From: Eledone cirrhosa | Lineage: Eukaryota | Assembly (NCBI GenBank): GCA_964016885.1 | Contig: OZ024744.1 | Location: 76,446,001-76,510,000, forward strand | Length of the DNA stretch: 64,000 nucleotides | Reading direction: 5' to 3' | Shown here: piece after piece, positions 2,378 through 63,244 of the stretch | Numbering within the stretch: position 1 is the stretch's first letter | How the letters are laid out: every line of letters starts with the position of its first letter | Position numbers and translations under genes: made by a program | Notes under the pieces: generated by a model | Databases searched by the model: none | Told to the model about the DNA's origin: nothing | Seen by the model: only the letters and a program-made list of their open reading frames with translations

Positions 2378-3469
2378 GATTTCTTAATTGGCCACAAGGG
2401 CGCAAAAAGATGGGGACAAATACAGAGTGGGGAGTTTACATACATGCGTGTAAAAAAATAGAATTAATAAAATAACAAATAACAAATAACAAATAACAAT
2501 TAACAATTGAAATCCCCAGTAGGGAAGAGGCGTTACACATGGGTTGTACACACCCCGAAAAAAATGTACAACCCTCATCTACAGGAGCACGAAGAGTGAG
2601 CGCTCCTTTCCTCTCTTCCTCTTTTTCCTCAACCGACATGTTTATATAGAGAAAAGGCCCAACCACTCGGGCCATCCTTGCCACATTCACCCACCTTTCG
2701 TAAAATTTGCTGGGGTACAGTGCCTCTCTCTCCACTCTGATTCTTCTTCTAAAATGATATTTGAAGAAGCGAACCAGTTGTTCGCCGGAGAGAAAGGTGT
2801 CTGACCTCAGCCCTTTCAGTTTCGTCCACCATATAGCCTCTTTCACCATAGCCATTACACAGAGGAAAACCGCCTATACCTCGTTTTTGAAGGAATGTGG
2901 CGGTTTGATCGCAATAATGGACACGGTGGTCAACCGGATTGTCCCACCCGCGACAGTAGTCGTTCTGCATAGCTCCACAGGTCGGCAACGCCCGGACAGT
3001 GTACGAATGCGTGCGCGACGGTTTCCTCGTCCCGCACGCATCTCGGACAGATCTTTTACGAGGGAACCCTGCCCTGGCGCCCCTGTCTGTAGAGCTTGTC
3101 TCGAACGGGTAGAGCTCCTCGGTAACACTGCCAGGCCAGGGACTTTCGGAAGTTGTCCATCGGTCCCGAACGGAATGTACTACCGAACAGACTGGCCAAT
3201 TCGTCTTCCTCTACGTCTAGAGTTTCTCCGAGAGTGTCGTCGCACTTGCTGCGGACCAACCCTTTATAGAATGTCGAGGTGGAGTCTCCACTGATCGCCG
3301 GATCCGTTTGCCAGAGGACTGTGAGCGCCTGAGCACATTCAATGTGCCAGTCGCCCATTTTCCTCGGTCTTTGCTTGACCCAGGACTGCAGCTCGGTCAG
3401 CGAGACGAGTCGCGGGAAGGCTCGCCTACACCGGTTGTTCGGTGAGGAATACATGGAGGTGCCGCAGCC
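2378..3469 (-). mobile_element. 5'-truncated Tx1 LINE (ORF2 C-terminus plus 3'UTR)
   Basis: LAWQCYRGALPVRDKL and CPRC..ETV.H zinc-finger region, homologous to 16.8-17.6 kb and 22.3-23.1 kb; (GATA)n on both sides. Confidence 0.9.
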
Positions 3470-9573: not shown

Positions 9574-9613
<40 letters not shown>

Positions 9614-9645
9614 ACACTCTCTCTCTCTCTATTTCTTTCTCTCTG
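9320..9645. repeat. Degenerate (CT)n microsatellite
   Basis: Direct reading. Confidence 0.95.
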
Positions 9646-9979
9646 TAGGTAACTGTGCAGTTTGATGATTTCACCTCAAGCGGTTTTGATATTAAGACTT
9701 GCTGCCAAACAAGGTCGGGTAGCCTATATAAAACCACGGGTCACGTGTTTCTCGTCAGTGGCCGATCAATGATCAATAATCAATGATCAGTGATCAGTGA
9801 TCAATAATCAATTATCAATTAAGTAGACATCCTATGATGACACATACAATAAGGGACGAAAATCAATTAAAGATGATCATAATTTTTAATCTACAGGGAA
9901 AATAAGGAAACGTGGCATGTTTATGTGTCTATAAATATATATATTTATGTGTGTCTGTGTATATATATATATAGTAATA

Positions 9980-10420
9980 ACTAGCAGAGGTACCCGGCGT
10001 TGCTTGGGTATTAAACAGCAGTTGTGTATACCATTTATGTCAATACTTCAGTGCTGCTAAGAAAACTATACTTTTACAAAATCATCGGCTTTTTCAAAAA
10101 GGGGGTTCCTGCCCCCAGGGGTCCTCTACTCAATATGTGCCAATTCTCATAGTTCACGTTCATCTGTAGAACAAACGTAGCCAATGTGTCAAGTTTTGTG
10201 AAAATCGGTTGCGAACTCCAGAAGTTATCACGTTTTGTTGCATTGCACTGCAGTGCTTCGGTCGACTCCAAGGAAGTGGTTAAAGGGGGTTATCTGCCGG
10301 GAGGCCCTATAATCAATATCTGGAAAAATGAAAGTGCCCATGACCATCCGGAGTACATAAGTAACCTATGTCTTAAGTTTGGGGAAAATACTGTAGAAAT
10401 GCATAAGGTTTACACACACC
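9980..10420 (-). mobile_element. Non-autonomous Helitron-like element (3' end)
   Basis: Minus strand ends with a GC-rich hairpin (cccaagcaacgccggg) followed by ctgCTAG-t; internal aagttt..gaaaatcgg motifs. Confidence 0.6.
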
Positions 10421-10547
10421 TACGTGCGCGTTTGTGTGTGTATGTATTTGTGTATGCGTATGTATATGTATGTGTATGTCCGTCGGCGCATACGTATGTA
10501 CTGGCCTAAATCTTCACTATTTACTTTTACTATTTTAAGGCAAAATT

Positions 10548-10660
10548 AAAATCCCGTCGAGGTTAACTTTGCCTTTCATTCTTACGGGGTCGATAAAATA
10601 AAGTACCAGTAATGTACTGGGTAATTGATGGCCTTGTGCCAAAAGTAGAAACAACTAATT
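10548..10660 (+). mobile_element. tRNA-SINE 3' fragment
   Basis: Same body and tail as 27496-27690. Confidence 0.8.
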
Positions 10661-10739
10661 TAATAACCTCTGTCATTTTCGTTTACAATTTAATTTACAT
10701 CATTCTTAAACTCCGGGCTGGAAATCATTCGGTTATTTT

Positions 10740-11010
10740 AAATAGAATATTAGTCTAACGACTCCATTTATACCATAAACTTGGTCACGCCTTTGCATGA
10801 AATTCTTCTTCTCGGTCCACATAACAACGTATTATCCTCGCCTTTTTCCGTTCATTGCCAGGGAACGTCTTCACGAACCAAAATATCGTCTTCCTGTTTT
10901 CCTTCGGTTGCAACGTTTCGCGAAATATTTAATTCTGCGTCCACAGATTGAATTCTTTAGTTTCACAAGATCCCGTTAATGTTGAAAGCAGCGATTCTTT
11001 GCTTAAACTT
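10740..11010 (+). mobile_element. Penelope-like pLTR fragment (family of 59169-61252)
   Basis: Matches 60960-61230; further pieces at 11928-12032 (-) and 58005-58055 (+). Confidence 0.75.
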
Positions 11011-11220
11011 TCTTTCTTTCTCAACCTCTCTCCCTTATTTCTCATACCCCCTCTCTCTCTCTCTTTCTCTCTCTGTCTCACTCATACCCCCCTCTCGCTC
11101 TTCCTCTACAGAATGGAGAACAATAAAGGACGCGCAGATCTCCCTCTCTCTCTCTCTCTGTCGTTATATATATATGTGTTTGTGTGTATGTGTGTGTGTG
11201 TGTGAACCAGCGTTCGTCGC

Positions 11221-11308
<88 letters not shown>

Positions 11309-11382
11309 CTATCTATCTATCTCTATCTATCTATCTATTATCTGATTATCTTGTACCTCTCTCTCTATAACGACCTATCTCA

Positions 11383-11420
<38 letters not shown>

Positions 11421-11536
11421 CTGATTATCTTGTACCTCTCTGTATAACGACCTATCTCACTCTCTCTCTCTCTCTCTCTCTCTCTACATATCCCTTTCTC
11501 TCTTTAGATGTATATGTATATATGTGTGTGTGTGTG

Positions 11537-11570
<34 letters not shown>

Positions 11571-11639
11571 TTGCAACATGTATGTATTTTCATAGATGTT
11601 TGAGGGTAGTAGAGAGAGTGAATAAGCGTGTAAGAGAGA

Positions 11640-11842
11640 GGGTTACATCATGTATTTAGGTTTATCGATTTTTGTTCATAGAAGCAGGACATTTTTGGCA
11701 AAGTTTATTACGCGTTGACCATCGTTTGTAAATTTGGAGCACATTGGAAAAAAAAATCATCAAAATCGGTAGAGAAATGTGGAAATGCATAAAAATCATA
11801 TACACAGACAGACAGGCATCTTCCGTTTTATACATATAGAGA
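11640..11842 (-). mobile_element. Helitron-like 5' end
   Basis: Minus strand starts TCtctatatgtataaaacggaag..ctgtctgtctg; shares catcaaaatcgg / gaaatgcataa-type motifs with 9980-10420. Confidence 0.55.
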
Positions 11843-12038
11843 TAATAACTGTGAAGACTAAAATCCGAAGAGGGCTCGATAGGGATCATATATATATATA
11901 TCAAAATATATAAAACCATAGAGCAAATATTTATTAAAATAACAGATTAATGTTTAATCATAGAATCGCTGCTTTCACCCTTAACGTGATCTTCTGAAAC
12001 TAAAAAAAATCAATATGTGAACGCTGAAGTAATTCTAC

Positions 12039-12085
<47 letters not shown>

Positions 12086-12128
12086 AAAGAAATCAAAGAA
12101 CGCTTACATACTCAAACAGTTTTTATTT

Positions 12129-12173
12129 GCTGACAATGTTTCATCCATACCGTTGGGCAGGAATCATCAGAGC
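12129..12173 (-). ncRNA. Minimal type I hammerhead ribozyme in a pLTR fragment (12083-12560)
   Basis: gct-CTGATGA-ttcc..gga-t-GAAAC-attGTC-agc followed by AATAAA. Confidence 0.8.
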
Positions 12174-12696
12174 TTAATAAACAAAAACACAGTGGTGAGC
12201 ATAAGCTCTACCAAGCGTAGTCACACAAACAATTAGAATACAATAGAGGGTAAAATGGGGAGATCGGAGATGGCGAATAAGGAGAGAGTACATGTTGGGG
12301 TTGTTATTGAGCACTACAGCTAAATTTTTTTCACAAGATGCAGATGCAAGTGATGGCACACAAAAGCAAAAAGTATAAACAATGGTTAAAACATATAATA
12401 AAACAGTAAATGGGAGATAATATAAAGAGATAAAAAATAAATAAAAAAGATAAACAATTTTAAAAAGAAAAAAAATAAAAAATAAAAAAAAAAAATAAAA
12501 AAGAAAAAAGAAAAAAGAAAAAAGAAAAAAGAAAAAAGAAAAAGAAAAAAGAAAAGCCAGAGGAAGACTAAAATCCGAAGAGGGCTCGATAGGGATCATA
12601 TATATATATATGATCCCTATCGTTGGTCACTATATATAACAAGTGAATAAGAACTCCGTAACTAATAGTTATAAAAATACTAAGAGATTCTTAAGG

Positions 12697-12759
<63 letters not shown>

Positions 12760-12828
12760 ATACTTGGGAGAGGGTCATATTTGTGTAATATTGCCAGAAT
12801 TAATAACAGAACACACTCACTATATATA

Positions 12829-13260
12829 TATTATTCAAAATGTTAACAAATTGAAAATATTCGAATAATCAAAATATATACTTTATTATATATATTTCAA
12901 AGGTACTGTGCTGTTTTTTCAGTACGTCCTCATCAGACAAATTATATGATTTCATATATGACATACCGCTACTGCCTTGATTATTCAATTCCCGTATTGG
13001 AACTGAATAATGAAGACCGTAGTGGTATGTCATATATCAAATCATATATTTTGTCTGATGAGGACGTACTGAAAAAATAGCACAGTACCTTTGAAATATA
13101 TATAATAAAGTATATATTTTGATTATGTGAATATTTTTCATTTGTTAACATTTTGAATAATATTAAAAACTCCAGGAAAACTTTTTTGTTGAGTGCTTCT
13201 AATCTATTGTAAAACTGTATTCGTTGAGTAATCCACGAACCATATTAATCTTTGGTTTTA
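12829..13260. mobile_element. Fold-back pLTR element in (TA)n, ~164-bp arms (12829-12992 / 12999-13162), HHR in each arm
   Basis: Near-perfect inverted repeat; CTGATGA at 13055, gtactg/cagtac stem, GAAA at 13093. Confidence 0.85.
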
Positions 13261-13277
13261 TATATATATATATATAT

Positions 13278-13987
13278 AAATACAAATAAATTATCGAGAA
13301 TCGGAATCTCGGCCCACGAAATAACGAAACACAATCTTCGAAATGTGTGGCAAAGTGCTCAATAGTTTGGGTAAACCAGAGCTATAACTAACGTTTAAAT
13401 ACCAACACACTGAGACGATGCTTAAACAATCATTCGCACAGCCGAAAAAACGACCAAGAAAATTCGGGTCAGACAAATAAAAATATGTATGAATGAAAAA
13501 TGTTTACCCGTACCCCCTGGAAAGATGGTAAATTCCAGCATTTGGGTTTCTGCGGCTCCTAAATCAGTTACCGTCAGCTTACATAAAAAATATCCGGCTT
13601 CTGGCAGAATGATGAACGAGGAAACCACTTTTCAACAGGCGGTTAGTTCAAATATACAAGGGAACCCGTTACTAAATCAACGTGGGGTCTAACAAGGGAG
13701 GGAACCCCTATATTAGGCGAATGAATTCAGTAGTGTATATTATTGTAAAAATACAAAATATCACATATCGAGTTAGAGTTCTCAACAGACGGGTTAAAAT
13801 TAACATGAACTATTCATCAGTCAATAGGATCAACTAAAAAATCAAAAAAATTAACTGACCAATAGCTAAAGACTGGAGATAAATACAAATAAATTATCGA
13901 GAATCGGAATCTCGGCCCACGAAATAACGAAACATATTCTTCGAAATGTGTGGCAAAGTGCTCAATAGTTTGGATAAACCAGAGCTA
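13278..13987. mobile_element. ORF-less element with ~110-bp terminal direct repeats (603-bp period) in (TA)n
   Basis: 13278-13387 repeated at 13880-13987. Confidence 0.7.
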
Positions 13988-14010: not shown

Positions 14011-16590
14011 GGCAGGATGTCGATAGACAGCATGCCGAACTACATCAAGAATATGCAACCCCACATCACCAACACGAGCGAAATTACACAACAAACACAT
14101 GAGGGGAGAGAGAAGATCCTCAACGCTCACATGATGATGTGGACCGACATCCTAAAGCCAAGCAAACGCACTGCCAACAACTTCCAGAAGTCTAACAATG
14201 ACATACCGCCCTTATATGGGCTCCGCAAAGACCATAAGACAGTCGACGACCCGACGACAGGGCTAGCAACAAGACCTGTATGCGGAGCCAATATCGCTAG
14301 CAACTACAGTATCTCCTACTTCCTCTCAATGGTTATACGTCCCATAATCAAGATGTCCCCAGATGTATGTGACAGTACAGAGGACCTCCTCAGCAGAATC
14401 AATGAGTGCAACAAAAACAAAAATCTATCTAACTGCATAATAGGCAGTATGGATGTGGTATCACTATACCCACCCATTAACATTGATTTTGCTGTGGAAA
14501 ATTTGTGGAGATGATCAGTGAGAGTGAGGTGGAGTTCTGCGACGTCGACACAGATGAACTGGGCCTCCTACTTAGACTTACCTATTACACCGAGTACCTA
14601 GACAGCCATGACCTTAGCCGTTTCTTCCCCCGTAGACACATAAGAAGTAGACCCCCACAATAACCTCAATGGCAAAAAAGACTCCCATGGGAAGGGGGAT
14701 TGGGTGGACCAAAGCCATACGGACCCCTCAAAACTATGATCAGGTAAGAAAAATGGTCACGCATGCAATAGGGACCAGTATTAAAACTACGCTAAAGGGC
14801 CATATATTCAAATTCAACGAAGATCTACATCCAAAATAAGGGAGCCGCCATTTGGCGTCTGCATAGCTGGTGACGTTGCCAACCTTTTTATGGTATGGTG
14901 GGAAAGGAGACTCAAAGATCTCCTTGATGAGAGCTCCATAGACCTCATCATGTACTCTCGTTATGTAGATGATATCAATATAGTAATAAGAACACCCACA
15001 CAAGAGAGTACTAACAAATATGATTTAGAATGTAGCACAATAGAAAGCATCCAGCAGATGGTTAACTCCATACACCAGAGTATAACTGCGACTATCGAAT
15101 ACCCTTCCAAACACTCTAACAATAGACTACCAGTATTAGACACGGAACTCTGGATTAACACTATAGACGAGACGGCCCAAATTCGCCACTCACACTACGC
15201 TAAACCCATGGCCTCCAAATACCTGATACTCAAAAACTCAGCAATGTCCAGTAATGCTAAGTTTAATATTCTGGTCGCAGACTTGGTACGAGTGATGATG
15301 AACGTGTCCCGCATGTGCGACCCAACAGAAATGGAAAGACACATCCAACACTTCATCAACCGCATGCAGTTCTCTGGCTACAACCAAAGATACAGAATCA
15401 GAGTATACAAAGGAGCCACGGAGAAGTATGAGACCCTCATAGAACTGGACATGAAAGGAATTTGCCCATTATACAGGAGCAAATCATGGAATAGCTTAGA
15501 TAGGACTAAACATAAGATAGGGAAAGCCACCTCATGGAACGACAACCAGATATACCAGAGTGTCATGTTCGTGGACGCTACCCCTGGAGGGAAATTAGCT
15601 AACCAGTGTAGAAAGGCCATGAAAAAGACTCACTTGAAGATTAAAGTGGTAGAAAAGCCAAGAACTACCATATAATCCCTGATCAGCAAAACATATCCTT
15701 TTATGAAAACCCACTATACTAATAGGAAATGTGTTATATGTAATGTAAACCCACAGATAAACTGTAAAACTGGAAATGTAGTCTATAGCATAAGATGTAC
15801 AGAGGGTGCTTGCAGAAACATGACAACAACATACATAGGCGAGACAGCTCGAAGCATAGGAGAAAGGATAGACCAAAACTGGGGGGAATTAAAAGGAGGA
15901 AAAAACGGTTCAGTACTATACGAACATGACAGACAACAACATGACGGTAACATAGACAACATAGAAATTAGAATAATATCTAAACATAGAAATGACCCAG
16001 CAGGTAGGCAAATCAGAGAGGCAAGCGAAATAGAGCTTAGAATGCCAAAGCTAAACAGAAAAAATTAATGGAATAACAACACCCAAACAACCTATACTGA
16101 CTTAAGAGAAATATAAATAAATAAATAAATATTTACACAAGCACAATGACAACAAATACATATAAACACACACTAGTAAACTAAGATAGAATACAATAAC
16201 CAACACGCACAGTCACCCAAACGCGAACACACACACCAAACGCTAAAACATACATGCAAACGCATGCGCAGAGAAGAAGAAAAAAATAAATAAATAAATA
16301 AATAAACAGATAAAATAAAAATGACGTAGACATACAATACAACAGGAGGAACAAAATAGTACCACTGGTGATGTTGCAGATGTGCAACGAAAGAACTTTG
16401 TTAGACTATATATATGTATTTATATCTGACCGTTGGTCAGTCAATGATAAACATTGAGGACCAAATGAATTAACTGTGGAGATGTAAAAGATACAGAAGC
16501 GAAAACCAACCAAACATTGGGTGTGTTCTGTTATTATTTCTGGGAATATTATTACAACAATATGACCCTCCCCAAATATATAAACATATA
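14011..16590 (+). mobile_element. 5'-truncated Penelope-like element (RT + GIY-YIG + pLTR), decayed
   Basis: PPLYGLRKDHK, RPVCGA, SMDVVSLYP, YSRYVDD and VVYSIRC..YIGETARS motifs; same family as 40741-43193; flanked by (TA)n/(TG)n. Confidence 0.92.
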
Positions 16591-16602
16591 TATATGTATA
16601 TA

Positions 16603-22045
<5,443 letters not shown>

Positions 22046-22046
22046 T

Positions 22047-22117
<71 letters not shown>

Positions 22118-22350
22118 ATTTCTTTATTTACCACAAGGGCGCACAAGAAAAGGGAACAATACAAAGACATGCCGGGGATTTTACATACAGTCGTGTAAAA
22201 ATATAGAACAAACAATTACAACAATCGAAATCCCCAATAGGGAGGAAGCACCACAAATGGGTTGTTTAATACCCCGTCGATAGAACAACCCTCAACTTCA
22301 GGAGCGTGTTGTGCAAGTGCTCCTTTCTTCCTTTTGCACTCCTCTTTAAC

Positions 22351-25300
22351 CTACAGGCTTATAAACAGAGAAGGCCCAATCACTCGGACCATTTTTGCAA
22401 CATTCACTCACCTTTCAGTCAATTTGCTGGGGTGCAGTGCCTCTCTCTCCACTCTGATTCTCCTTCTAAAGTGATACTTAAAGAAGGGAATCAATTGTTG
22501 TCCGGAGAGTAAGGCATCTGTTCTTAGTCCTCTCAATCTCGTCCACCATATAACTTCTTTCACCATAGCCACAGTACAGAGGAAAACCGCCTCTCTTTCG
22601 TTTCTGAAAGAGGCTGGCGGTTTGATCCTTACTATGGACTCGGCAGTCAATTGTATTTGTCCCATACGCGACAGCAGTTGTTCTGCATAGTTCCACAGGT
22701 CGGTTACGCCCGGGCAGTGTACAATTACGTGCAGGACGGTTTCAATGTCCTGCACGCATCTTGGACACGTCCTCTTGGAAGGATCCCTGCCGGGGATTTC
22801 TTATCTGTTGATCTTGTCGCGAACTGGTATAGCTCCTCGGTAGCACTTCCAGTCCAAGGACCTCTGGAAGTTGTCCATAGGTCCCGGGCGGAAAGTCCTA
22901 CCGAACAGACAGGTGAGCTCATCGTCTTCGACGCGCAGAGTCTCTCCGAGCATGTCGTCGTCCTTGTAACGTACAGTCCCTCTATAGAATGTCGAAGTGG
23001 AGTCTCCATTTATTGCTGTGCTCGCTTGCCAGAGGACTGTGAGCGCCTGAGCGCATTCAATATGCCAGGCGCCCATCGATTTCGGTCTTTTCTTGACCCA
23101 GGACTGCAGCTCCGTCAGCGAGACGAGCTGCGGGAAAGCATGTCTCACAAACGGTGCCCACACCGGTTGGAGGTCGGTGAGGAATACCTGGAAATATCGC
23201 AGCCTCAGCGCATGTTTGCGCATCATCAGCCACAGCATTCCCAGCCCTCGGTTGGAAGGGTGCTGACAGCAGACGGATCTCCTCACCACCGCAGCCTGCT
23301 TCTTCCACAGAAACTGGAAGAGGATGCATTCCATCTTGGCGAGGTGTTCACGGGGACAAGGTACGACACTCAAGCGGTAGTAGATGACGGACGCTATGAA
23401 AGGGTTCGCCACCTCCACTTGACCTTTCAAGGACAGTTTGCACTCTGCCCACTTCTGGGTGAGCGCAAACACCATGGCCGTGACTTCGTTCAAGTTTTTC
23501 TCCACCTGGAGGTCTAGACCGAACCAGACACCAAGCAATTTCACCGGTCCGTCCGTCCAGCGTCCAGCGACGCTGTCGGACGTCATCAATTTGCCTCTCC
23601 ACGCACCGAGTTTCAAATCGACAGACTTGTCCGGGTTTAGTTTTGCTGCCGTCAGCGTTTCGTATTCTTTCAGTAAGTTGCCGATCACCCCGATTTCCGA
23701 GGGGCTCGACACCATAAGCCGACGCCGCTTTGCGCAGTCCCGAATCTAGAGGGATGCCCTGCAACAGCTCCAATTTCCGCAGTAGTGGCTTTAGAGTCAA
23801 TACATACAGAATGGAGGAGAGAGGGCATCCCTGTCGAATGGAACGCGTGATCACGACCCTCGAGCAGATGCTGGTGTGTATCGCCTCGATCCAGCCTCTG
23901 AAAACGGGATCGAAACCGGCCGCCTTGAGAACCGCTTCCAAGTATCGATGGTCGACCCTATCGAATGCCTTAGACTGATACAAATTGATCAGAGCCTCAC
24001 CGAAGCCGGGTTTACTACCCACCCTCTCTATGATGTATCGCATGAGGTGGAGGTTGTCGTGTATGGACCTAGTCGGGATTGCACACGTTTGCGCTTTCCC
24101 TACCAGGTTCTCGACGACAAGCGCCAGCCTCGTCGCTAGCACCTTGGCCAAAATCTTTAACTCTGTGTTGAGCAGAGTTATGGGGCTGAAGTTGATAATT
24201 TCGTCCCCCTTGTTCTCGTCTTTCCTATCAGCGTTACGACGCCCATGCTTGCAGAACTGGGAATTCTCCCGTTCTGCTGCCAATTGCGGTAGACTGCTTC
24301 GAGGACACAAGAAAACAAGTCCGGCATGCCTATGTAAACTCATAGGGTAGACGATCTAGACCGGGTGACTTGCGCTTCCCGCAGCGGCCCAGGGCGTCCC
24401 GTATCTCAGTATCCGTGATCGGCGTCTGTGTTCGAGAGATGCGGCAGGCCGTCTAGGTATGAACTAAAGTCCATTGCCCCGTTTGGCTCACCGTCGTTCT
24501 GCTCAAACAATCGCGCAAAGTGCTGCTGAAAGGCCGCGCACATTTGCTTGGGGTCAAGTAGCACGCGTCCGTTTTGGTCTTTCAAAGACCGAATCGTGGA
24601 CTTGTTGCCACTTTTTGCCTCCGCCACTCGGGCCCAGCTAACAGCTTTCGCTCCTGCGTTTCCTAGAGCACGTGTTTGCTTCTGACCACGCAGCCTTCGT
24701 GTTTCGCATCGAAGAACTGGTCCAGTGCCGTTCTTGACGCTAACACTCTAGCCGCGTTGCCACTTCTAAGTCCCTCCTTTACCTTGGCTACTAGTTCTCT
24801 TTCTATTTTGTTTTTCTCTAAGGCTAACTCTCTGCTAAACTCTATCGATTCTACTCTAATTGCTTTTTTGAGAGAGTACCACCATTTATTGTTGACGATG
24901 GCTCCCGTTAACTGTTGCTTGACTAGTCTACTTATCCGTTCACCGTAAGCTTTACGTGCCGGCAACGACACGTTCAGCTTCCAGTGTCCGGGTCCCTGTC
25001 TATGTATTCTACCACGGTTGACTATGCAGACGACTAATTTGTGATCTGAATAGGCAACTATGTGCATTCGTGGACAGCTTAACATCTCCTTGTCCCTTTC
25101 TCTAATGAAGAACCTATCTAAATACGATCTAGATGTCCCGCTGCGGTTTGCTCACGTCCACTATGAAGCAGTCGGGAAATCCAGTCGATACATATCGGCC
25201 AGTTGGAATTGGCCGATTAAAGTGTTGAGGCTGTTGCAACCCCACCTCTACTGGGACATTATCCTACATAGTCCCATCGTGCATCTAGGATACCATTCCA

Positions 25301-32143: not shown

Positions 32144-32148
<5 letters not shown>

Positions 32149-32301
32149 TTCTACAGGACTAGAACTGTTATCATTCGGGAGAAATCATCAGGAAACGGTT
32201 CTAGTCCTGTAGAAGCCATTTCTATATTAAATATTTATACTCTGCTATGTATTGAGTACCTTACCTACTGTGGTTACCCCCGATTGAGCACGGGATAAAC
32301 T
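32144..32301. mobile_element. Short fold-back pLTR tail in (TA)n
   Basis: Arms atggcttctacaggactagaac / gttctagtcctgtagaagccat; the tail recurs at 63042-63160. Confidence 0.75.
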
Positions 32302-32406: not shown

Positions 32407-33478
<1,072 letters not shown>

Positions 33479-33562
33479 CCCACTCTACTACCCCAAGTAT
33501 CGAGGACTCTGGTGCGGTATGGTCCACCTTGTATCTTACCACAACTTCTTTGTTATATATAT

Positions 33563-35977
33563 AACTCACGCCTATTTTACCCGTTCCATAAGATTAATGA
33601 AAACCTAAACTACGTTAGCTTTTACTCTAACCACCCTAAAAATGTTAAAAAAGCTATAGTTAATAGTGTCAAGCAAAGAATATCTAGACTCTCGGCTAAT
33701 AAAAATATATTTGGAAACAAAGCACAATATTACAATGACGCTCTACACAAAGCTGGATACAATAATAAAATTAAATACATATATAAGAATAGTATACACA
33801 AACCTCCTAAAGTTTATTATAATATTAATAATAAACAAATTAACCAAAATAATAAATCAAATAAAAAACTAAAACTAGAAATATAATTTGGTATTCTCCT
33901 CCGATTTCATTAAGAATAAGACACCTTTAGCACACCAATTCTTTAAGGCTTTGGATAAATGTTTTCCTAAGTCCCATAAGTATCACTACATATTTAACAG
34001 ACATACAGTCAAGCTCTCTTACTCTACTACTATGAATATAGCACAAAATATTAATAGAATTAATAATAGGAATTTAAAATTAAACTCAACCCAAATAAAC
34101 TCAAATAACAATAACAATATAGTTAATAACATTACGTATAATAATAATAGCGAATGCATAAATAATAATACCGTTTCTCTAAACAACAATATTAGAAAAT
34201 GTAATTGCAGAAATAACATATGCCCTTTACAGAATAATTGCCTTGATAGAAATTTAGTATACAAATGCACCATAAAAACTAGATATAGATTATATAATTA
34301 TATAGGAGTTACTTCTACAAAATTTAAGGAGCGCTGGTATAATCATAAACATACTTTCAAACGATCGGACAAAAATTTCTCAACCTCACTATCACAATTA
34401 TTTTGGTCTTTAAAAGACTGTAACACTGACTATTCGGTCACTTGGCGAAGGATATCGAAAGCGCCAGTTTACCAAAATATGGCTCTCACAAGAATTTGTC
34501 ATCTCTGTATTGAAGAAATATTTCATATAATTACCAATCCTGGTAATATTATTAACAAAAAAAAAGGAAATATTTAATTTTTGTTTGCATCGATTCTCCA
34601 GAACATTTCATAATATTTACAATTTATAGAAAATACTACACATGGTCTGTATAAGTTGACTATGTACAATATATATTTTTGGTTGTCTTTAAAAGCTCTT
34701 AAATTTATACATAGAAATATTTACTATTATCAAATTTATACATAGAAATACTTATTGTTATCAATAAATATTCATCTTTTTATTATTATCTAGACCATAT
34801 TTACTATATGGTGCTCTGAAATCATATAGAAATTTTTATTTATATTATAATATAAATTATAATTAATTATTAGGTTCAACATTAGATCAAACAATATGTC
34901 TTTAAATAATTTGCATTCCTTAAATTACTAAATACTAGAGTTATCTTTCCCTTAATAAAAGTTTGTTTACAATTCACATATACGAGACATTCAAATTGTA
35001 CATAAATGTTTAAATTTATATATCTAACCTTATACAATAATAGATTATACATAATATTATACATGTTCTCTTAAAAATTATAATTATTTTCACATTCTTA
35101 AGGTATATATAGAAAATGCATATATATCATCGCTCATCATATCTTACGCTCTTTCATAATTATATATACTTAAATAAGATTTATATTCATGCATAACTAT
35201 GGACTAAATAATTTTTGGACTAAATAATTTTTATGGACTAAATCATTTTTTTTAATAACGATATACAATAATATTTTATACTACAATACTTATAATATTT
35301 ATAACTACACTCATCATAATATTAAAATATATGCGTAAAATATATCGAATCGTATATATAAATACAGGGTATCTTTCACATATTATATTGCTTTAATAAA
35401 TTAATAGTTCTCAATTTAATTCATTAATTTACAATTCTATAAATATTATAAATACTTCCATATTCTTAAAATATATTATAAAATTAAATAAATAAATATA
35501 ATTATTTCATTCTTTCTATACCCATGTAAATAGGTTTGGGTGTATATATATGCATATTTCTATAAATAAACCTAAATCAACTTTAAAGTTTTCTTTTCAA
35601 ATTTAATAGCAAACCCTTTTTAAAAAATAATTTAGATAAATATTTAAAATCTATCTAGCGTCTAAACTTAACGGTCCTTTTCAATTTTAACGTTATCCTC
35701 ATTAGTATATTCCCCCCGAGTTTTGAAAGATTATATTCACTATCCTCACTGAACTTATAACATGTAGTTCACATGAAGATATGTCACTATCTTTACACCA
35801 ATTATGGTATTTTATCTGACGAAAGCGTACTAAAATAAATATGGTTTGATAAAGATATTTTCCATTTATTAATAATATTGATATTAATTATACTCCGTTA
35901 AATTACCGTTGAGTGCTACTAAACTGTTATGAATTAACTTTGTTGAATAATCGACAAACCAAATAACTCATTGTTTA
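33563..35977 (+). mobile_element. 5'-truncated Naiad-like Penelope element (AT-rich)
   Basis: SNHP, IFNRHTVKLSYS, CNCR..CPL..C, LVYKC..YIGVT..FKERWYNH, CHLCIEE..I and CLH motifs; pLTR tail related to 13000-13260. Confidence 0.88.
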
Positions 35978-40711: not shown

Positions 40712-40740
<29 letters not shown>

Positions 40741-40746
<6 letters not shown>

Positions 40747-43192
40747 ATATTTGGGGAGGGTCATATTTGCGTAATATTGCCAGAATTAATAACAGAACAC
40801 ACTCACTGTTTGGTTGGTTTCCGCTTCTCGCTGTCTTTTATATATATATATCTGCGATCTAACTTACTCGGTCCTCAATGTTGCCATTGACTGACCGGCG
40901 GTCAAAAATAATACAGATACAATATAGACAAACACATATATATATAGTTTACATAAATCTTTCGTTGCACATCTGCATGATTTTGCTGTGAAAAGATGTG
41001 TGGAGATGATCATTGAGAGTGAGGTGGAGTTCTGCGACGTCGACACAGACGAACTAGGCCTCCTACTTAGACTTACCTACGACACTGACTACCTAGACAG
41101 CCATGACCTTAGATGTTTCTGCCCTAGTAGACCTATAAGAGGTAGACCCCCCACCATAACCTGAATGGCTAAAAAGACTCCCATAGGAAGGTGGATTGGG
41201 TGGACCAAAGCTATACGGACCCCCCAAAACACTGATCAGGTAAGAAAAATGGTCGCACATGCAATAGGGGCTAGTATCAAAACTACCCTAAAGGGCCACA
41301 TATTTAAGTTCAATGAGAAAATCTACACCCAAAATGAGGGAGCAGCCATCGGCGTCAGCATAGCTGGCGATGTTGCCAACCTTTTCATGGTATGGTGGGA
41401 AAGGAGACTTAAAGATCTCCTTAATGAAAGCTCCATAGACCTCATCATGTACTCTCGTTATGTAGACGATATCAATATAGTTATAAGAACACCCCCACTA
41501 GAGAGCACTAACAAGTTTGATTTAGAACGTAGCACGATGGAAAGCATCCAGCAGATAGCTAATTCCATACACCAGAGTATAACTGTAACTATAGACTTCC
41601 CTCCAAACACCCTAACAATAGACTACCTGTATTAGACACAGAACTCTGGATTAACACTATAGACGAGAGAGCCCAAATTCTCCACTCACACTATGCTAAA
41701 CCCATGGCCTCCAAATACCTGATACTCAAAAACTCAGCAATGTCCAGTAGTGCTAAGTTTAATATTCTGATCGCAGATTTGGTACGAGTGATGAAGAATG
41801 TGTCCAGCATGTGCGATCCAACAGAAATGGAAGGACACATCCAACACTTCATCAACCGCATGCAGTTCTCTGGCTACAACCAAAGAGACAGAGTCAGAGT
41901 ATACGAAGGAGCCATGGAAAAGTATAAGACCCTCATAGAACTGGACATGAAAGGAATTTGCCCACTATACAGGAGCAAATCATGGAATAGCTTAGATAGG
42001 GCTAGACATAAGATAGGGAAGGCCACATCATGGTACGACAACCAGAGATATCAGAGTGTCATGTTTGTGGACGCCACCCCTGGAGGGAAATTAGCTAACC
42101 AGTGTAGAAAGGCCCTGAGAAAGACCCACTTAAAAATAAAGGTGGTAGAAAAGCCAGGAACCACCATAAAATCCCTGATCAGCAAAACCTACCCTTTTAA
42201 GAAAACCCACTGTACCAATAGGAAATGTATCATATGTAAGGTGAACCCCCGGATAAACTGTAAAACTAGAAACGTAGTCTATAGCATAAGATGTACAGAG
42301 GGTACTTGCAGAAACACGACAACAACATACATAGGTGAGACAGCTCGTAGCATAGGTGAAAGGATAGACCAACACTGGGGGGAACTAAAAGGACGAAAAA
42401 ACGGGTCAGTACTATACGAACATGCTAGACAACATCATGACGGTAACATAGACAACATAGAAATTAGAATAATATCTAAACATAGGAATGACCCAGCAGA
42501 TAGGCAAATCAGAGAGGCCAGTGAAATAGAAATTAGAAGACCAAAGCTAAACAGAAAGAATGAGTGGAACAACAACAACACCCAAACAAACAACACTGAC
42601 CTAAGAGAAGTATAAATAAATAAGTAAATTAAATTAAATAAAATAAGATAAATAAATACATACACAAGCACATAAACACACACTAGTCACCCAGCAGACA
42701 CAACACGATACACACTAGTCACACATCACACATAACACTATACACACACGCAAACGCATGCGCAAAGAAGACAAAATAAAATAAGATAAACAAACAAGCA
42801 AATAAATAAATAAATATATAGACAGACTGAACAAAAAAAAAATGGCGTAGACATACAACACAACAGGAGGAACAATGAATATAACACCACTGACGATGTT
42901 GCAGATGTGCAACGAAAGATTTATGTAAACTATATATATATGTGTTTGTCTATATTGTATCTGTATTATTTTTGACCGCCGGTCAGTCAATGGCAACATT
43001 GAGGACCGAGTAAGTTAGATCGCAGATATATATATATAAAAGACAGCGAGAAGCGAAAACCAACCAAACAGTGAGTGTGTTCTGTTATTAATTCTGGCAA
43101 TATTACGCAAATATGACCCTCCCCAAATATAACAATATCTGTTTCGACACACGATTTCATATAAAAAACCTCGCAAAACTAATTCATCGCCG

Positions 43193-43193
<1 letters not shown>
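40741..43193 (+). mobile_element. 5'-truncated Penelope-like element with ~237-bp inverted pLTR at the 5' end
   Basis: ORFs 41165..41635 (YVDD) and 41704..42615 (GIY-YIG); 40741-40977 is the reverse complement of 42900-43136; HHR core CTGACGA..GAAA at 42890-42917. Confidence 0.93.
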
Positions 43194-43260
<67 letters not shown>

Positions 43261-43262
<2 letters not shown>

Positions 43263-44365
43263 TCAAACTGAACGGGTACACGACATCCACCACAAACCGT
43301 GCCAGAAAGAACAGAGGACACCACACCCGAGGCACTAACACTTGCTTCCTGAAGCTCCCACACTTCAGTGAAGAAACAACAACAGCCATCCGCAGAGCCA
43401 TCAGGCGAGAAGGTCTGGATATTCAACTGGCCCATTCGGGTCCTTCTTTGCGTGGACGGCTAGCTAAGAGACACTCCACCAGACATGACAACTGCTGCAG
43501 ACTAGCCAACTGCCCCATCAACGACACAGACCTATGCCACCAGGCTTACGTAGTTTACAGACTAGAGTGTGACAAATGCAACAACTTCTACGTAGGTAGC
43601 ACCACCAGACCACTCCACATAAGAATAAAAGAACACCTCAATACTAACGCTTCCTCATTTAAGAAACACCTAGTTAAATGCAAAAACACTGATAAAAACA
43701 TAACAGTTAGGATAGAAACTAAGGAAAGAAACCTCGGCAATCTTAGAATCAAGGAAGCACTCATTATAGATAGAACACATCCACCAATCAATAATAGACT
43801 AGAGCTCAACACCCAATTTATAACCTGATAGGGCCTCTAGCCCCACTTTACACACCCCACACACACGCACGCGCACACCTCCACTTATTCTCTCTCACAC
43901 ATACACACACAAAACCAGTTCTAACACCAGATAACACCTACCCCCCACTTTTACGATTAGACCTATCTTCCCACACTCACACACACACACCCACATACCT
44001 ACACCTTCATGCTTTCTCCCACACACATATACAGGCACGCATATAAAATTTAAAAAAACACAACAAAAACATAAACAAACCCCTCTTAAAGGGAGACTAC
44101 TCTTTACCCACCTAATTTTAATTCTTTGATATTAAAGTTAGAACTCTATACTATTTCCGGTCAGCATGGCTTCATTGGAAATTTAGACGCTGGTCTGAGA
44201 CTTTTACTTCCCTCCGAAGAAGAGATATTATCTCGAAAATTAAGGACATTTAAATAAATTCAAGGTGAAAGACGAATTCTCATCAATATCTTTCACTATT
44301 GCATTCTTTTTTTTTTCTATGTCCATATCTGCATTGTCTTGGCCTTATTACACATATTCTAACGT
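43261..44365 (+). mobile_element. 3' fragment of another Penelope-like family (GIY-YIG + pLTR)
   Basis: VVYRLECDKC..YVGSTTRPLHIRIKEH; HHR-like cct-CCGAAGA-a-gagata-t-tatctc-GAAA-atta-agg at 44211-44245. Confidence 0.88.

Positions 44366-44928: not shown

Positions 44929-44930
<2 letters not shown>
44456..44930 (+). mobile_element. Fold-back pLTR element (arms 44456-44536 / 44757-44839) with HHR at 44595-44676
   Basis: acacacg-CTGAAGA...GAAA-tagatc..gatttGTA-cgtgtgt (7-bp stem I). Confidence 0.8.
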
Positions 44931-45027
<97 letters not shown>

Positions 45028-45041
45028 TATATGTACATATA

Positions 45042-45103
<62 letters not shown>

Positions 45104-45117
45104 TATACGTGTATATA

Positions 45118-45196
<79 letters not shown>

Positions 45197-45217
45197 GTAT
45201 ATATATGTATATATATA

Positions 45218-45296
<79 letters not shown>

Positions 45297-45312
45297 ATAT
45301 ATATATATATAT

Positions 45313-45502
45313 AACGAAGGAAATGTGGTAAGGAACCAGGTGGACCGTAACGCACCAAAGTACTGAATATTTAGGGTAGTAGAGTGGGTAATAGGAACCA
45401 GTAAGACCCCGACGGCTGAGCTCAAGCCGTTTCGACGGCTAATTCTGGATCAGAATTAGCCGTCGAAACGGCTTGAGCTCAGCCGACGGGGTCTTACTGG
45501 TT

Positions 45503-45507
<5 letters not shown>
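45313..45507. mobile_element. Hairpin mini-element, copy 1 (57-bp arms)
   Basis: Arms 45391-45447 / 45451-45507; relatives at 54818, 62860 and 33476. Confidence 0.88.
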
Positions 45508-45586
<79 letters not shown>

Positions 45587-45600
45587 TATATGTACATATA

Positions 45601-45642
<42 letters not shown>

Positions 45643-45648
45643 TATATA

Positions 45649-45742
<94 letters not shown>

Positions 45743-45766
45743 TGTGTATATATATATATATATATG

Positions 45767-47638
45767 GAAAGTTATATTTAAATTGTTGGGTTACAACTAG
45801 TAAATATTTATAACTGATATAAAAGCACTCAACAAGTATTTAGAATTTAATGACCAACTATGGACCAGAGCAGATAGAGATAGCAATTTTGACATTACTA
45901 TCGGATCATCCGACTCAGCTCAGGTAACTGACCTTGTGGGCTTATTTTTAATCAATTCGCTACATAGGAAAATACCTGGTACTACCGGAGGTTTATATAG
46001 AGATGACATGCTTTTACTTATTGATAATAATAACTCTGAACTAAATAGAAAAAGAAAACAAATTACACAATTTTTTAATTACTTTAATCTAAAAATAGAA
46101 ATTGAGAACAACCATAGAATAGTCAATTTCCTAGATATAACATTAAATCTCAACACATGTCTTCACTATCCATTTCACAAGTTGAATGAAAACTTAAACT
46201 ATGTCAGCTTTAACTCTAACCACCCCAGATCTGTCAAAAACACTATAGTAAACTCTGTTCAAAAACGTATCTCTAGAATCTCGTCTAATAGAAAGATTTT
46301 CGACGAAAAAGCCCAATACTACAATGAAGCGTTAGCTAGAGCAGGATATAGTGATAGGATTATGTACATAGATAATGATAGACAAACTAAACAAAATAAC
46401 AACTATTTTAATTACGACCACAATCTTAACAACTATAATAGAAAGCATTACAATAATTCCAAAAGCCAAAAAAGAAATAGAACTAGGAACATAATATGGT
46501 TTGCCCCCCTTTCTCACTAAACATTAAAACCCACATCGCTAAACTATTATTTAAAGCTCTTGATAATCGCTTCCCTAGAACACATAGGTATCACTCAATT
46601 TTCAATAGACATACTATAAAATTAACCTACTCATCCACCAAAAATTTAGCACAAAATATTAATAGAATAAATAATAGGAACTTAAAACCTAGCGATAATA
46701 GCATAAATAATATACAAGTTAACAAATGTAACTGTAGAGATAGATCTAAATGTCCGTTAAATAACAACTGCTTAGTTAAAAATATAATATACAACTGTAA
46801 TGTTAAAACGGACTCTAATTCTTTTAACTACGTCGGTTCCACATCGACGGAATTTAAACTTCGCTATAATAACCACAAGAATTCTTTCACAGATCCAAGC
46901 AAATAAATCTTCAACAGCACTATCAGGCGTACTTTGGCAACTTAGGCAAGATAACGTTAGATATTCGACGGCTTGGAATATAGTCTCAAGAGGGATTCCT
47001 TTTAATTCATCCTCTTAGACATGTGACCTCTGCGCGGAGGAGATATTCTTTATACTAAAATTTAAAAATTCCCTTAATCTACGGACAAATTTATTCAGTT
47101 GCTGCAAACATAGATTGAACTCAACTTTTAAATATAAATTTAAATTTAAAATGTAGTATATTTAGTTTTGTAATTATTTGGGAAACTAGCCGATAAATCT
47201 TTCGATTTCTTCTTTTTATTCTTCTTTTTATTTTTATTTTAATTTTTATTTTAAACATTCTTCATGAAAAATTAAACTACCCTAAAAGTTGATGCTCCAA
47301 ATATATCGAATAAACGTTACACTAGATAAACTTCTATATTAAATATAAGAACATATGTAGACCAAATGGGCATCCTAAACTTTTGAAATGATTTCTGCTA
47401 GACGCGATTTGGTAAATAATTTTTAGCTTTATCTGTTTTCGACTCTAATGCTTATAATGAACTTGACAATATATTGTCAATTAATTTTGAAGGGTTGATC
47501 TTTGTGGTCGATTTGCGTGGCATATTATGTTTTTATTTTTATTATTTTAATATTTTTTAATAATATTTTTTAATATTTTTAATATTTTCATTTTTAATAT
47601 GTAATATTTTTTAGTTTTCTATTTTATTTATTTGTTTA

Positions 47639-48697: not shown

Positions 48698-49129
<432 letters not shown>

Positions 49130-49911: not shown

Positions 49912-49944
49912 CATTTATATATATGTATATATATATATATATAT

Positions 49945-51240
49945 ATTGGAATAAATGCTCTGAAATAGCGATATATATGTGAATATAGACATAGAATATT
50001 CGAAAATATTCTGTATGTTTATAATAAACATTTTGAAGACCTAATCGCTATAGAATAGAATACGTCACGTATTACAATTAGATTCTCGATAAAAGCAAGG
50101 GAAGTAATCTACGCGTTTCATTCTTATTAGAAATCTTCAGGACTACATATCCAGTGTTTTTATCGAGAATGACACAGCTAGAGACTTATAGAATACTTAG
50201 CCGTGTACAGGAACTGGTTTGAAAGTGCGGTTGCCGGTCCGGCAGAAATTAGAAATTGGAATAAATGCTCTGAAATAGCGATATATATGTGAATATAGAC
50301 ATAGAATATTCGAAAATATTCTGTATGTTTATAATAAACATTTTGAAGACCTAATCGCTATAGAATAGAATACGTCACGTATTACAATTAGATTCTCGAT
50401 AAAAGCAAGGGAAGTAATCTACGCGTTTCATTCTTATTAGAAATCTTCAGGACTACATATCCAGTGCTTTTATCGAGAATGACACAGCTAGAGACTTATA
50501 GAATACTTAGCCGTGTACAGGAACTGGTTTGAAAGAGCGGTTGCCGGTCCGGCAGAAATTAGAAATTGGAATAAATGCTCTGAAATAGCGATATATATGT
50601 GAATATAGACATAGAATATTCGAAAATATTCTGTATGTTTATAATAAACATTTTGAAGACCTAATCGCTATAGAATAGAATACGTCACGTATTACAATTA
50701 GATTCTCGATAAAAGCAAGGGAAGTAATCTACGCGTTTCATTCTTATTAGAAATCTTCAGGACTACATATCCAGTGCTTTTATCGAGAATGACACAGCTA
50801 GAGACTTATAGAATACTTAGCCGTGTACAGGAACTGGTTTGAAAGAGCGGTTGCCGGTCCGGCAGAAATTAGAAATTGGAATAAATGCTCTGAAATAGCG
50901 ATATATATGTGAATATAGACATAGAATATTCGAAAATATTCTGTATGTTTATAATAAACATTTTGAAGACCTAATCGCTATAGAATAGAATACGTCACGT
51001 ATTACAATTCCTGTACACGGCTAAGTATTCTATAAGTCTCTAGCTGTGTCATTCTCGATAAAAGCACTGGATATGTAGTCCTGAAGATTTCTAATAAGAA
51101 TGAAACGCGTAGATTACTTCCCTTGCTTTTATCGAGAATCTAATTGTAATACGTGACGTATTCTATTCTATAGCGATTAGGTCTTCAAAATGTTTATTAT
51201 AAACATACAGAATATTTTCGAATATTCTATGTCTATATTC
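49945..51240 (-). mobile_element. Retrozyme-like array: 3.4 near-identical 310-bp HHR units plus 232-bp inverted segment
   Basis: Units start at 49945, 50255, 50565 and 50875; inversion 51009-51240; flanked by (TA)n; no ORF. Confidence 0.88.
51075..51117 (+). ncRNA. Type I hammerhead ribozyme (minus-strand copies at 50104-50146, 50414-50456, 50724-50766)
   Basis: gtagtc-CTGAAGA-t-ttct-aata-agaa-t-GAAAC-gcGTA-gattac; stem I extended by attctcgataaaagca (51051-51066) / tgcttttatcgagaat (51124-51139). Confidence 0.9.
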
Positions 51241-51252
51241 ATATATATATAT

Positions 51253-51530
51253 ATATTAATAAAAGGAATTACAACTTTGTCTGATTTACTCGTTTTATTT
51301 ACAATCCTTTAAAATTTATAATGGTATTAGAATGAAATATTATGGTAGAATATTAAATGTTAAGTGTTAATTGAACAAGTATTTTCATGCTTTCGCAATC
51401 TTCAGGTTCATAATGTGTGGTGACAGTCAAGTTTGCAATTTTCAACTGACAGTTGAAAATCAGACAAAGTTGGAATTCCTTTTATTAATATAATCTTCTC
51501 TACACAATCATTCACACCCGTGTATATTTA
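51253..51530. mobile_element. Fold-back element (arms ~51253-51287 / 51457-51492) with minimal HHR-like core on the minus strand
   Basis: CTGAAGA-ttgc-GAAA near 51390-51405. Confidence 0.65.
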
Positions 51531-54415: not shown

Positions 54416-54641
54416 TTTAAGTTGGGTGGTTCACCACTGGATAGAACTGTTCATTCCGTATAACCTACCATGATGTAATATTAGGAAAAGCACTCGGCGT
54501 TATAAAACTCGACCATCTTTGATATAGAATCTTGTTGGTGGTGCGAGAACGGAGTTAATTATTATTGAGGATTTTGAAGGAATTTGACCTGTCCAGCCTC
54601 CTCTCATTTTACTCAATAATATATATATATGTATATATATA

Positions 54642-54800
54642 TAGAAGTGGTTACACAACAGTTATTTCACCATATCGAAAACAATTGATTCACCTTAGCG
54701 GATCCTCAGCTCGTAAAGTTCTCGGTATGATGAACTAACTGTTGTGTAACCACTTCTACCTAACTCGTCCTAAGGACTGAGTGCTCTACCACTATCTCTC
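54642..54800. mobile_element. Fold-back element (~41-bp diverged arms) in (TA)n
   Basis: tagaagtggttacacaacagtta / taactgttgtgtaaccacttcta. Confidence 0.75.
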
Positions 54801-54817
54801 TCTATATATATATATAT

Positions 54818-55022
54818 AACGAAGGAAATGTGGTAAGGAACCAGGTGGACCATAACGCACCAAAGTACTCAATACCTAGGGTAGTAGAGTGGGTAATAGG
54901 AACGAATAAGACCCTGACGGCTGAGCTGAAGCCGTTTCGACGGCTAATTCTGGACTCAGAATTAGCCGTTCAGAATTAGCCGTCGAAACGGCTTGAGCTC
55001 AGCCGTCGGGGTCCTACTCGTT

Positions 55023-55027
<5 letters not shown>
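54818..55027. mobile_element. Hairpin mini-element, copy 2
   Basis: Same family as 45313-45507. Confidence 0.88.
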
Positions 55028-55079
<52 letters not shown>

Positions 55080-58754: not shown

Positions 58755-59109
58755 TGGTAGCTATGGAGCTTCTATAGGCGGTATGCCAGAATTAGCACTC
58801 AATATTGTTACAGAGCAGAGTGTGAATAGTATAAAAAACGAAAAATCAGTGATGCATCTGGACTCAGTTTATTGCGGGTTGCAATTGTTTCGCCGGCAGG
58901 TAGCTCGAGACATGATCACTGTATGGATGTGGCTGATTCTACGGCTGCAGGTTCCTTCGGACCGAAAGAATTGCATGTGTCCGAAGGAACCTGCAGCCGT
59001 AGAATCAGCCAGATCCATACAGTGATCATGTCTCGAGCTGCCTGCCGGCGAAACAATTGTAACACGCAATAAACTGAGTCCAGATGCATCACTGATTTTT
59101 CGTTTTTTA

Positions 59110-59115
<6 letters not shown>
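58755..59115. mobile_element. Large fold-back element, 137-bp arms (58826-58962 / 58979-59115), variant HHR
   Basis: Near-perfect palindrome; gtgt-CCGAAGG...GAAAC-aattGTA-acac then AATAAA. Confidence 0.85.
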
Positions 59116-62807: not shown

Positions 62808-62859
<52 letters not shown>

Positions 62860-62863
<4 letters not shown>

Positions 62864-63037
62864 AACAAGTAAGACCCCGGCGGCTGAGCTCAAGCCGTTT
62901 CGACGAATTAGCCGTCGAAACGGCTTGAGCTCAGCCGTCGGGGTCTTACTTGTTCCTATTACCCACTCTACTACCCTAAGTATTGAGTACTTTGGTACGT
63001 TATGGTTCACCTGGTTCCTTACCACATTTCCTTCGTT
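62860..63037. mobile_element. Hairpin mini-element, copy 3 (opposite orientation)
   Basis: Same family as 45313-45507. Confidence 0.88.
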
Positions 63038-63162
63038 ATATTCCTGTAGAAGCTCCTTCTATAAAATAAAAAAGCTCCTTCTATAAAATAAAAAATGTTT
63101 ACTCTGCCATGTATTGAGTACCTTACTTACTGTGGTTATCCCCGACTCAACCCGGGACCTAC

Positions 63163-63244
<82 letters not shown>

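Follow-up and report, generated by a model that had tools for sequence, protein, structure and literature searches.

Does a short retroelement repeat that folds into a hairpin do so again and again at one point, and is that point the stem of a ribozyme? The question is raised by a 64-kb stretch of the Eledone cirrhosa genome (hereafter the window), where three short hairpin repeats, termed copies A, B, and C, all lie inside TA microsatellites. The microsatellite load of the window would in itself suggest the genome of an animal. The initial annotation of this DNA took them for mini-elements that had each been inverted, apparently independently, at stem II of a hammerhead ribozyme. As set out below, the three repeats are likely to be cut-short, head-to-head insertions made by the enzyme of a Penelope-like retrotransposon (Penelope-like element, PLE).

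Structure of the hairpin copies

In each copy, a long arm of 133–139 nt and an inverted short arm of 47–57 nt meet head-to-head, and a tail of ~80 nt is carried by the long arm and is missing from the short one. The features are:

45313–45507: copy A, with TA-repeat borders
54818–55027: copy B, with TA-repeat borders
62859–63037: copy C, in the opposite orientation to A and B, with TA-repeat borders
45313–45449, minus strand: long arm of copy A, a pLTR-like 3′ end including the tail
45313–45390, minus strand: tail of copy A, about 78–81 nt, on one arm only; the family-wide ends are at 45311 and 45391
45451–45507, plus strand: short, inverted, tail-less arm of copy A; the joint is one extra base, 45450
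54818–54956, minus strand: long arm of copy B with its tail
54956–54969, plus strand: additional tandem 14-nt copy at the centre of copy B
54971–55027, plus strand: short inverted arm of copy B
62859–62905, minus strand: short inverted arm of copy C, 47 nt; one G at the joint is common to both arms
62905–63037, plus strand: long arm of copy C with its tail
44929–45312, no strand assigned: (TA)n target to the left of copy A; the TA run continues at 45508–45765
33474–33554, plus strand: piece of a related repeat that comprises the tail alone (81% identity), starting after a TA run at the boundary where the short arms stop

That the window holds three such hairpins was borne out by a 24-nt arm motif, with six matches in the window against none in each of 100 shuffles, and by the fold of copy A (−76.5 kcal/mol, z −18.3), which none of 200 shuffles equalled. 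An inverted, 5′-truncated copy adjoins head-to-head in all three cases, and more such joints occur in sequencing reads. The short arms do stop at one site, as had been claimed, the identical TTC(C/T)TAT being found in all three, and the centres do differ among the copies. The claim that every copy is centred on the same 14-bp pair fails for copy C, where only four bases of the pair are present in the short arm and 16 nt are lacking relative to copy A.

Comparison of the arms

The six arms share 47 positions, seven of which are variable and only one of which, at A-coordinate 45399, is informative. At this site the base is identical in both arms of each copy and different among the three copies; the remaining variable sites are single-arm changes. 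The arm phylogeny proposed in the initial annotation favours pairing by locus, with nine parsimony steps versus eleven for the best tree by side, on the strength of that one site. The arms of copy B differ at 4 of the 47 positions, against two differences each between its short arm and the long arms of A and C. The two B arms also conflict at 45404, a second polymorphic site; variation within the family is found at A-coordinates 45398, 45399, 45404, 45417, and 45442.

The mirrored base, then, is indeed the same in both arms and different among the copies, but it is not copy-specific: across the family, site 45399 is triallelic, at about 44–49%, 33–37%, and 17–21% in three runs of public reads. 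Since all three alleles are common across the family, the site is a subfamily marker. With an allele pool that also takes in a related repeat, the probability that three independently drawn short arms would all match their own long arm at this site is ~0.03. The comparison suggests that both arms of each copy come from a single source, and homogenisation of the arms by gene conversion, which had been offered as an explanation, is unnecessary to account for the mirrored base. The three centres in the window do not by themselves prove independent formation, because in A and B the loop is oriented alike and the two centres are separated by 1 nt and a tandem duplication of 14 nt. Taken by itself, the window is weak evidence for independent formation.

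The family in public reads

Four of 12 public runs were aligned to copy A at 85% likeness, X1 as contigs and X10–X12 as raw RAD reads, with X2–X4 and X5–X9 (the latter of small shares) left out. The aligned runs come from two studies that carry the same species label and may represent individuals other than that of the window. The hairpin family is very abundant, since 13,076 contigs of X1 and 21,238–24,882 reads per RAD run aligned to copy A, counts to which a related repeat contributes. Moreover, both 3′ ends, the one with the tail and the one without, are family-wide, because, in each RAD run, about 2,900–3,400 reads continue beyond the tail-less end at 45391 directly with TA repeats; TA loose ends occur at this position in all four runs, and 9,600–13,350 reads per RAD run extend over the reference ends.

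Non-hairpin copies depart from the reference at 45449 where, among the loose ends listed, those beginning with CTAAA are found in all four runs (930–1,113 reads per RAD run and 99 contigs). Only 8–10% of the RAD reads at 45449 cross the hairpin centre, and hairpins seem to be a minority product in the family, with the proviso that their reads may be under-sampled. Most RAD reads stop at 45444, which is exactly an AATT, and we infer a restriction cut there.

Loose ends at 45449 agree with one another at 0.46–0.51 in the RAD runs, versus 0.70–0.76 for the related repeat. This low agreement was considered as proof of a fixed 5′ end and was kept as a lead only, given that RAD reads stop at AATT and that contig counts overweight unique junctions. 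The related repeat, itself abundant (loose ends at 45397, 45405, and 45441), has the core and tail in common with the hairpin family. Its letters to either side of the core are different, and over at least 30 nt upstream it continues as a single sequence.

A joint probably formed repeatedly at one narrow site

About six centre types, all within a few bases, are present in the reads. Among the changes listed for X1, base 45450 is lost in 42 contigs and changed from T to C in 65, base 45451 is changed from C to T in 38, and a C is inserted after 45449 in 39 contigs and after 45450 in 17. When the centre types were rebuilt, the non-hairpin path proved to supply a complete template for either side in five of the six, with an overlap of 0–1 nt; one type, T>C plus C>T, is a combination of two unphased changes. 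The centre of copy A itself has one untemplated extra base.

The joints in the reads are similarly varied. Among the 15 listed, seven connect an arm at 45441–45449 with an opposite-strand partner at 45352–45397 and five skip from 45369–45423 to 45451–45460; an arm reaching 45441–45460 is paired with a partner of varied stop, anywhere from 45352 to 45423, in 12 of the 15. Such varied joints are better explained by joining that recurred at a narrow site than by the drift of one ancestral hairpin, and there is moderate support for the view that the joint probably arose afresh many times within a single narrow stretch. The proposal of a recurrent fold-back at stem II can therefore be divided, in that repeated formation at one narrow site is supported by the reads and the arm tree, but its location in stem II is not.

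The hammerhead-like motif

The motif that gave rise to the stem II proposal is a partial one:

45411–45433, minus strand: hammerhead-like 3′ half made up of GAAA, a stem of 6 bp whose loop is palindromic, and GUC; the 5′ half was not found

GAAA, stem III, and a UH cleavage triplet follow one another as in a hammerhead and are intact in four of the six arms. A motif of this kind arises in 16 of 5000 shuffles, under a descriptor that was chosen after the motif had been seen and 13 of whose 17 matches in the window are unrelated. GAAA is preceded by a C in the hairpin copies, and the cut-like site lies 98 nt from the tail end; for five full hammerhead candidates in the window, the range is 49–154 nt. 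No CTGANGA is present in A, B, or C on either strand, nor was the stem I partner of a type I hammerhead found in the copies, and both are also absent from the 30 upstream letters of the related repeat, so that the claim that the inversion had replaced an adjacent CTGANGA half was not sustained. An Rfam scan gave no hammerhead family among the best 150 of 161 matches, those 150 being driven by microsatellites or hairpins and falling below the gathering score.

A joint in stem II also makes a prediction for the reads, namely that the parent aligns through both stem strands and leaves the reference near 45465. A step in depth at 45465 is absent from all four runs (ratios of 1.0, 0.92, 1.22, and 0.96), in a test that covers mainly copies lacking the AATT at 45444, in which hairpin molecules are possibly under-sampled and a long loop would be invisible. 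A stem II partner directly upstream in non-hairpin copies was likewise not found, a test that is valid for a short loop only. Because there is no step at 45465 and the departure comes at 45449 with CTAAA, the left strand of the supposed stem II looks like the inverted arm itself. The joint lies ~16 nt upstream of the hammerhead-like 3′ half and is probably not a stem II loop, and the placement of the joint at stem II is not supported by these observations.

Judged by their sequence, the copies are predicted to be unable to self-cleave. The centre was also considered as a second hammerhead cut site; this was rejected, as arms and loose ends reach upstream of the centre and would be impossible to template from a cleaved RNA.

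Resemblance to Penelope-like elements

The putative PLE origin of the copies rests on layout and context. All three are inserted in AT-rich or (TA)n DNA, and their layout supports the assignment made initially: a truncated copy in inverted orientation, a tail confined to one end, a pair of fixed 3′ ends, and (TA)n as the target. No target-site duplication was found, and TA repeats would hide one. A DNA transposon (MITE) was also considered and was rejected, the repeat being one-sided and a tail being present.

Within the window, reverse transcriptase (RT) fragments below the Pfam cut-off are found at 41165–41632 and 14785–15672 and a GIY-YIG domain at 43133–43825, all of them lying apart from the hairpin copies. 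An ORF piece lies beside copy A, and its nearest Atlas clusters carry PF26215, which we take to be linked to PLE RTs. Exact-pattern scans of metagenome contigs, viral contigs, and prokaryote genomes found neither a parent element nor a link to an ORF. For the sole open frame of the long arm, which is very short (44–45 codons), none of 20 protein candidates reached E ≤ 0.01, and a further search gave 0 hits, an outcome of little weight for so small a frame.

According to the accessible parts of the PLE literature, insertions of these elements have an adjoining inverted, 5′-truncated copy, a one-sided tail of 30–40 bp, and (TA)n targets (Craig et al. 2021, PMC8557442), and their inverted junctions consistently contain palindromes, for which self-priming has been proposed (Arkhipova et al. 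2013, PMC3846280). The hairpins resemble the inverted pLTR-and-tail units described there for endonuclease-positive PLEs in their head-to-head, inverted, 5′-truncated copy and tail at one end, as well as in the palindrome at the joint and the duplication-hiding (TA)n target. Unlike those units, as far as they are described in the same two sources, the hairpins have no ORF between the repeats, their arms are 47–59 nt, their tail is ~80 nt versus the published 30–40, and their joints are crowded within a few bases.

In vitro work on Poseidon of Anolis carolinensis, as given in the available part of that report, showed that the purified protein of a PLE cuts both strands where the DNA is AT-rich and also extends both, that two internal reverse-transcription start sites bound the tail, and that uncleaved RNA is used (Frangieh et al. 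2024, PMC11167929). The two fixed 3′ ends of the hairpin family fit two internal start sites, the target is similarly AT-rich, and the hairpin copies reach upstream of the hammerhead-like cut site, as would be expected from uncleaved RNA. Poseidon differs in having a full hammerhead and a tail within the ORF, whereas the 5′ half was not found in the hairpins.

PLE hammerheads have been defined in PMC4209133, and the accessible portion of that paper provides for a similar comparison. The order GAAA–stem III–UH, the palindromic loop 3, and the C before GAAA (position 11.1) are shared, and paired motifs on opposite strands are also reported there. In contrast, stem III has 6 bp in the hairpins, whereas most metazoan PLE motifs have a short stem III or none, and the CUGANGA and the stem I and stem II partners were not found in the hairpins. 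The non-LTR retrozymes of animals, in what is available of their description (bioRxiv 10.64898/2026.07.22.740005), are also short, non-coding repeats related to PLE pLTRs; they are tandem units with a full hammerhead each, while the hairpins are dispersed inverted pairs without one. The literature covered, outside of which lay most subscription papers and all supplements, held nothing on this hairpin family or on a fold-back at stem II.

Other fold-backs in the window

At least seven other fold-backs are present in the window. The one at 12828–13163 (~336 nt, 92% self-complementary) has a full type I hammerhead candidate in each arm, and single motifs related to its hammerhead occur at 48546 on the plus strand and 51773 on the minus strand. 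At 49940–51257, each of three 310-bp units in tandem has a minimal hammerhead-like motif on its minus strand, and an inverted copy follows them; the arrangement resembles an array of retrozymes or pLTRs. Further mini-elements that fold back, all from other families, are found at 32144–32300, 54642–54800, 48821–49018, and 58826–59115, three of the four having perfect arms of 22–33 nt around a non-palindromic centre of 32–73 nt.

Directly after copy C, the stretch 63038–63166 resembles the tail of the 32144 element (82%) and contains a 21-nt internal duplication; different families are stacked in one TA run at copy C, and likewise at 54620–55030. The tail-only piece, in the region 33474–34577, lies 8 nt before a truncated ORF that resembles the ORF at 45804–47150. 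Finally, 32429–33372 holds a partial tandem and an inverted copy with a 570-nt fold-back and, on the minus strand at 32678, a candidate hammerhead, and a region at 40739–43138 with an RT/endonuclease-like ORF is placed between perfect inverted repeats of 239 nt.

How the hairpins may have formed

The reading that we favour, at a probability of about 0.6, is that both target strands were primed at two start sites on the RNA and that the two resulting cDNAs were joined near a shared stop. Its observed basis is the anatomy of the copies, the presence of both 3′ ends throughout the family, the variety of centre types, and the joints whose partners differ in length; the nicking of two strands and the use of two internal start sites are taken over from published PLE biochemistry. 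The PLE enzyme would nick both strands of AT-rich DNA, and reverse transcription would begin at two internal RNA sites, one giving the end with the tail and the other the tail-less end. Both cDNAs would then halt within a few bases of a common 5′ stop, either the end of the RNA or a strong pause, and would be joined with an overlap of 0–1 nt. Both arms would stem from the same source RNA or subfamily, by which the mirrored base would be accounted for. The tail-only piece at 33474, which begins at the same boundary, was counted in favour of priming at two start sites. Counted against this explanation were the dependence of the arm tree on one site, the disagreement of the B arms at 4 of 47 positions, a tail longer than those published, and the untemplated base at the centre of copy A.

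A single cDNA (or antisense template) that folded back near its end and was copied into an inverted arm is a less probable, although by no means negligible, alternative. Self-priming of this kind is the published proposal for the recurrent palindromes at inverted PLE junctions (PMC3846280, as seen in part), and it would account both for the mirrored base and for 0–1 nt overlaps with loops of 2–4 nt. The mirrored base is thus predicted by twin priming and self-priming alike, and the two are separated here only via the fixed tail-less end. Self-priming leaves the single stop of the short arm, in three of three copies and about 3,000 reads per run, unexplained except for a 3-nt TAT match to the target, and joints in which the arm lengths are 50–100 nt apart would need a jump and not a tight fold-back. 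Somewhat less probable again, and in our view unlikely, is the copying of a few pre-formed hairpin masters as units, with the arms kept alike in the master and the centres drifting by deletion, duplication, or point change. The near-identity of the A and B centres, the origin of C by a possible 16-nt deletion, the marking of subfamilies by the mirrored site, and the high summed depth of each centre type in X1 all agree with such masters. However, random mutation of the loop would not predict altered centre letters that match the non-hairpin path in five of six types, and the low share (~8–10%) of RAD reads at 45449 that cross the centre speaks in the same direction, subject to possible under-sampling.

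Least probable of all, and very doubtful, is a parent with an intact hammerhead, the stem II of which is the palindrome (a long-loop stem II included) and in which a fold-back there replaces the CTGANGA half. In favour of such a parent are the rarity of the GAAA–stem–GUC motif in shuffles, a C at the place of position 11.1 in PLE hammerheads (PMC4209133, in its accessible part), and a cut-like site inside the range of the five full candidates. Against it stand the flat depth at 45465, the loose ends that begin with CTAAA in place of the stem partner, the upstream letters of the related repeat, and the unrelated majority of the descriptor matches; moreover, the fold-back at 12828–13163 keeps a full hammerhead in both arms, and window fold-backs are thus not generally located at stem II.

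Significance for PLE integration

An inverted copy with a tail and a palindrome at the joint is already known for PLEs, and in this respect the hairpins are mostly ordinary. They are real, ORF-less, inverted-plus-tail insertions, probably of the Penelope-like kind and likely formed more than once, and the ribozyme-stem twist, from which they drew their apparent specialness, is not upheld. A further and tentative idea, which we consider possible and still on balance doubtful, is that the family represents a SINE-like RNA which is very abundant, depends on PLEs, measures only about 145–150 nt, and has a fixed 5′ end, one such molecule being reverse-transcribed from both nicked strands. If this were true, each hairpin copy would record one twin-priming event, and the many copies would amount to a natural statistical test of twin priming versus self-priming. 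The origin of the inverted copies and tails of PLEs is still unsettled in the accessible parts of the work cited here (PMC8557442, PMC3846280, PMC11167929). Present in high copy number, with a narrow joint and with short arms that both carry subfamily markers, the hairpin family is handy test material for the mechanism of PLE integration, available from the assembly alone.
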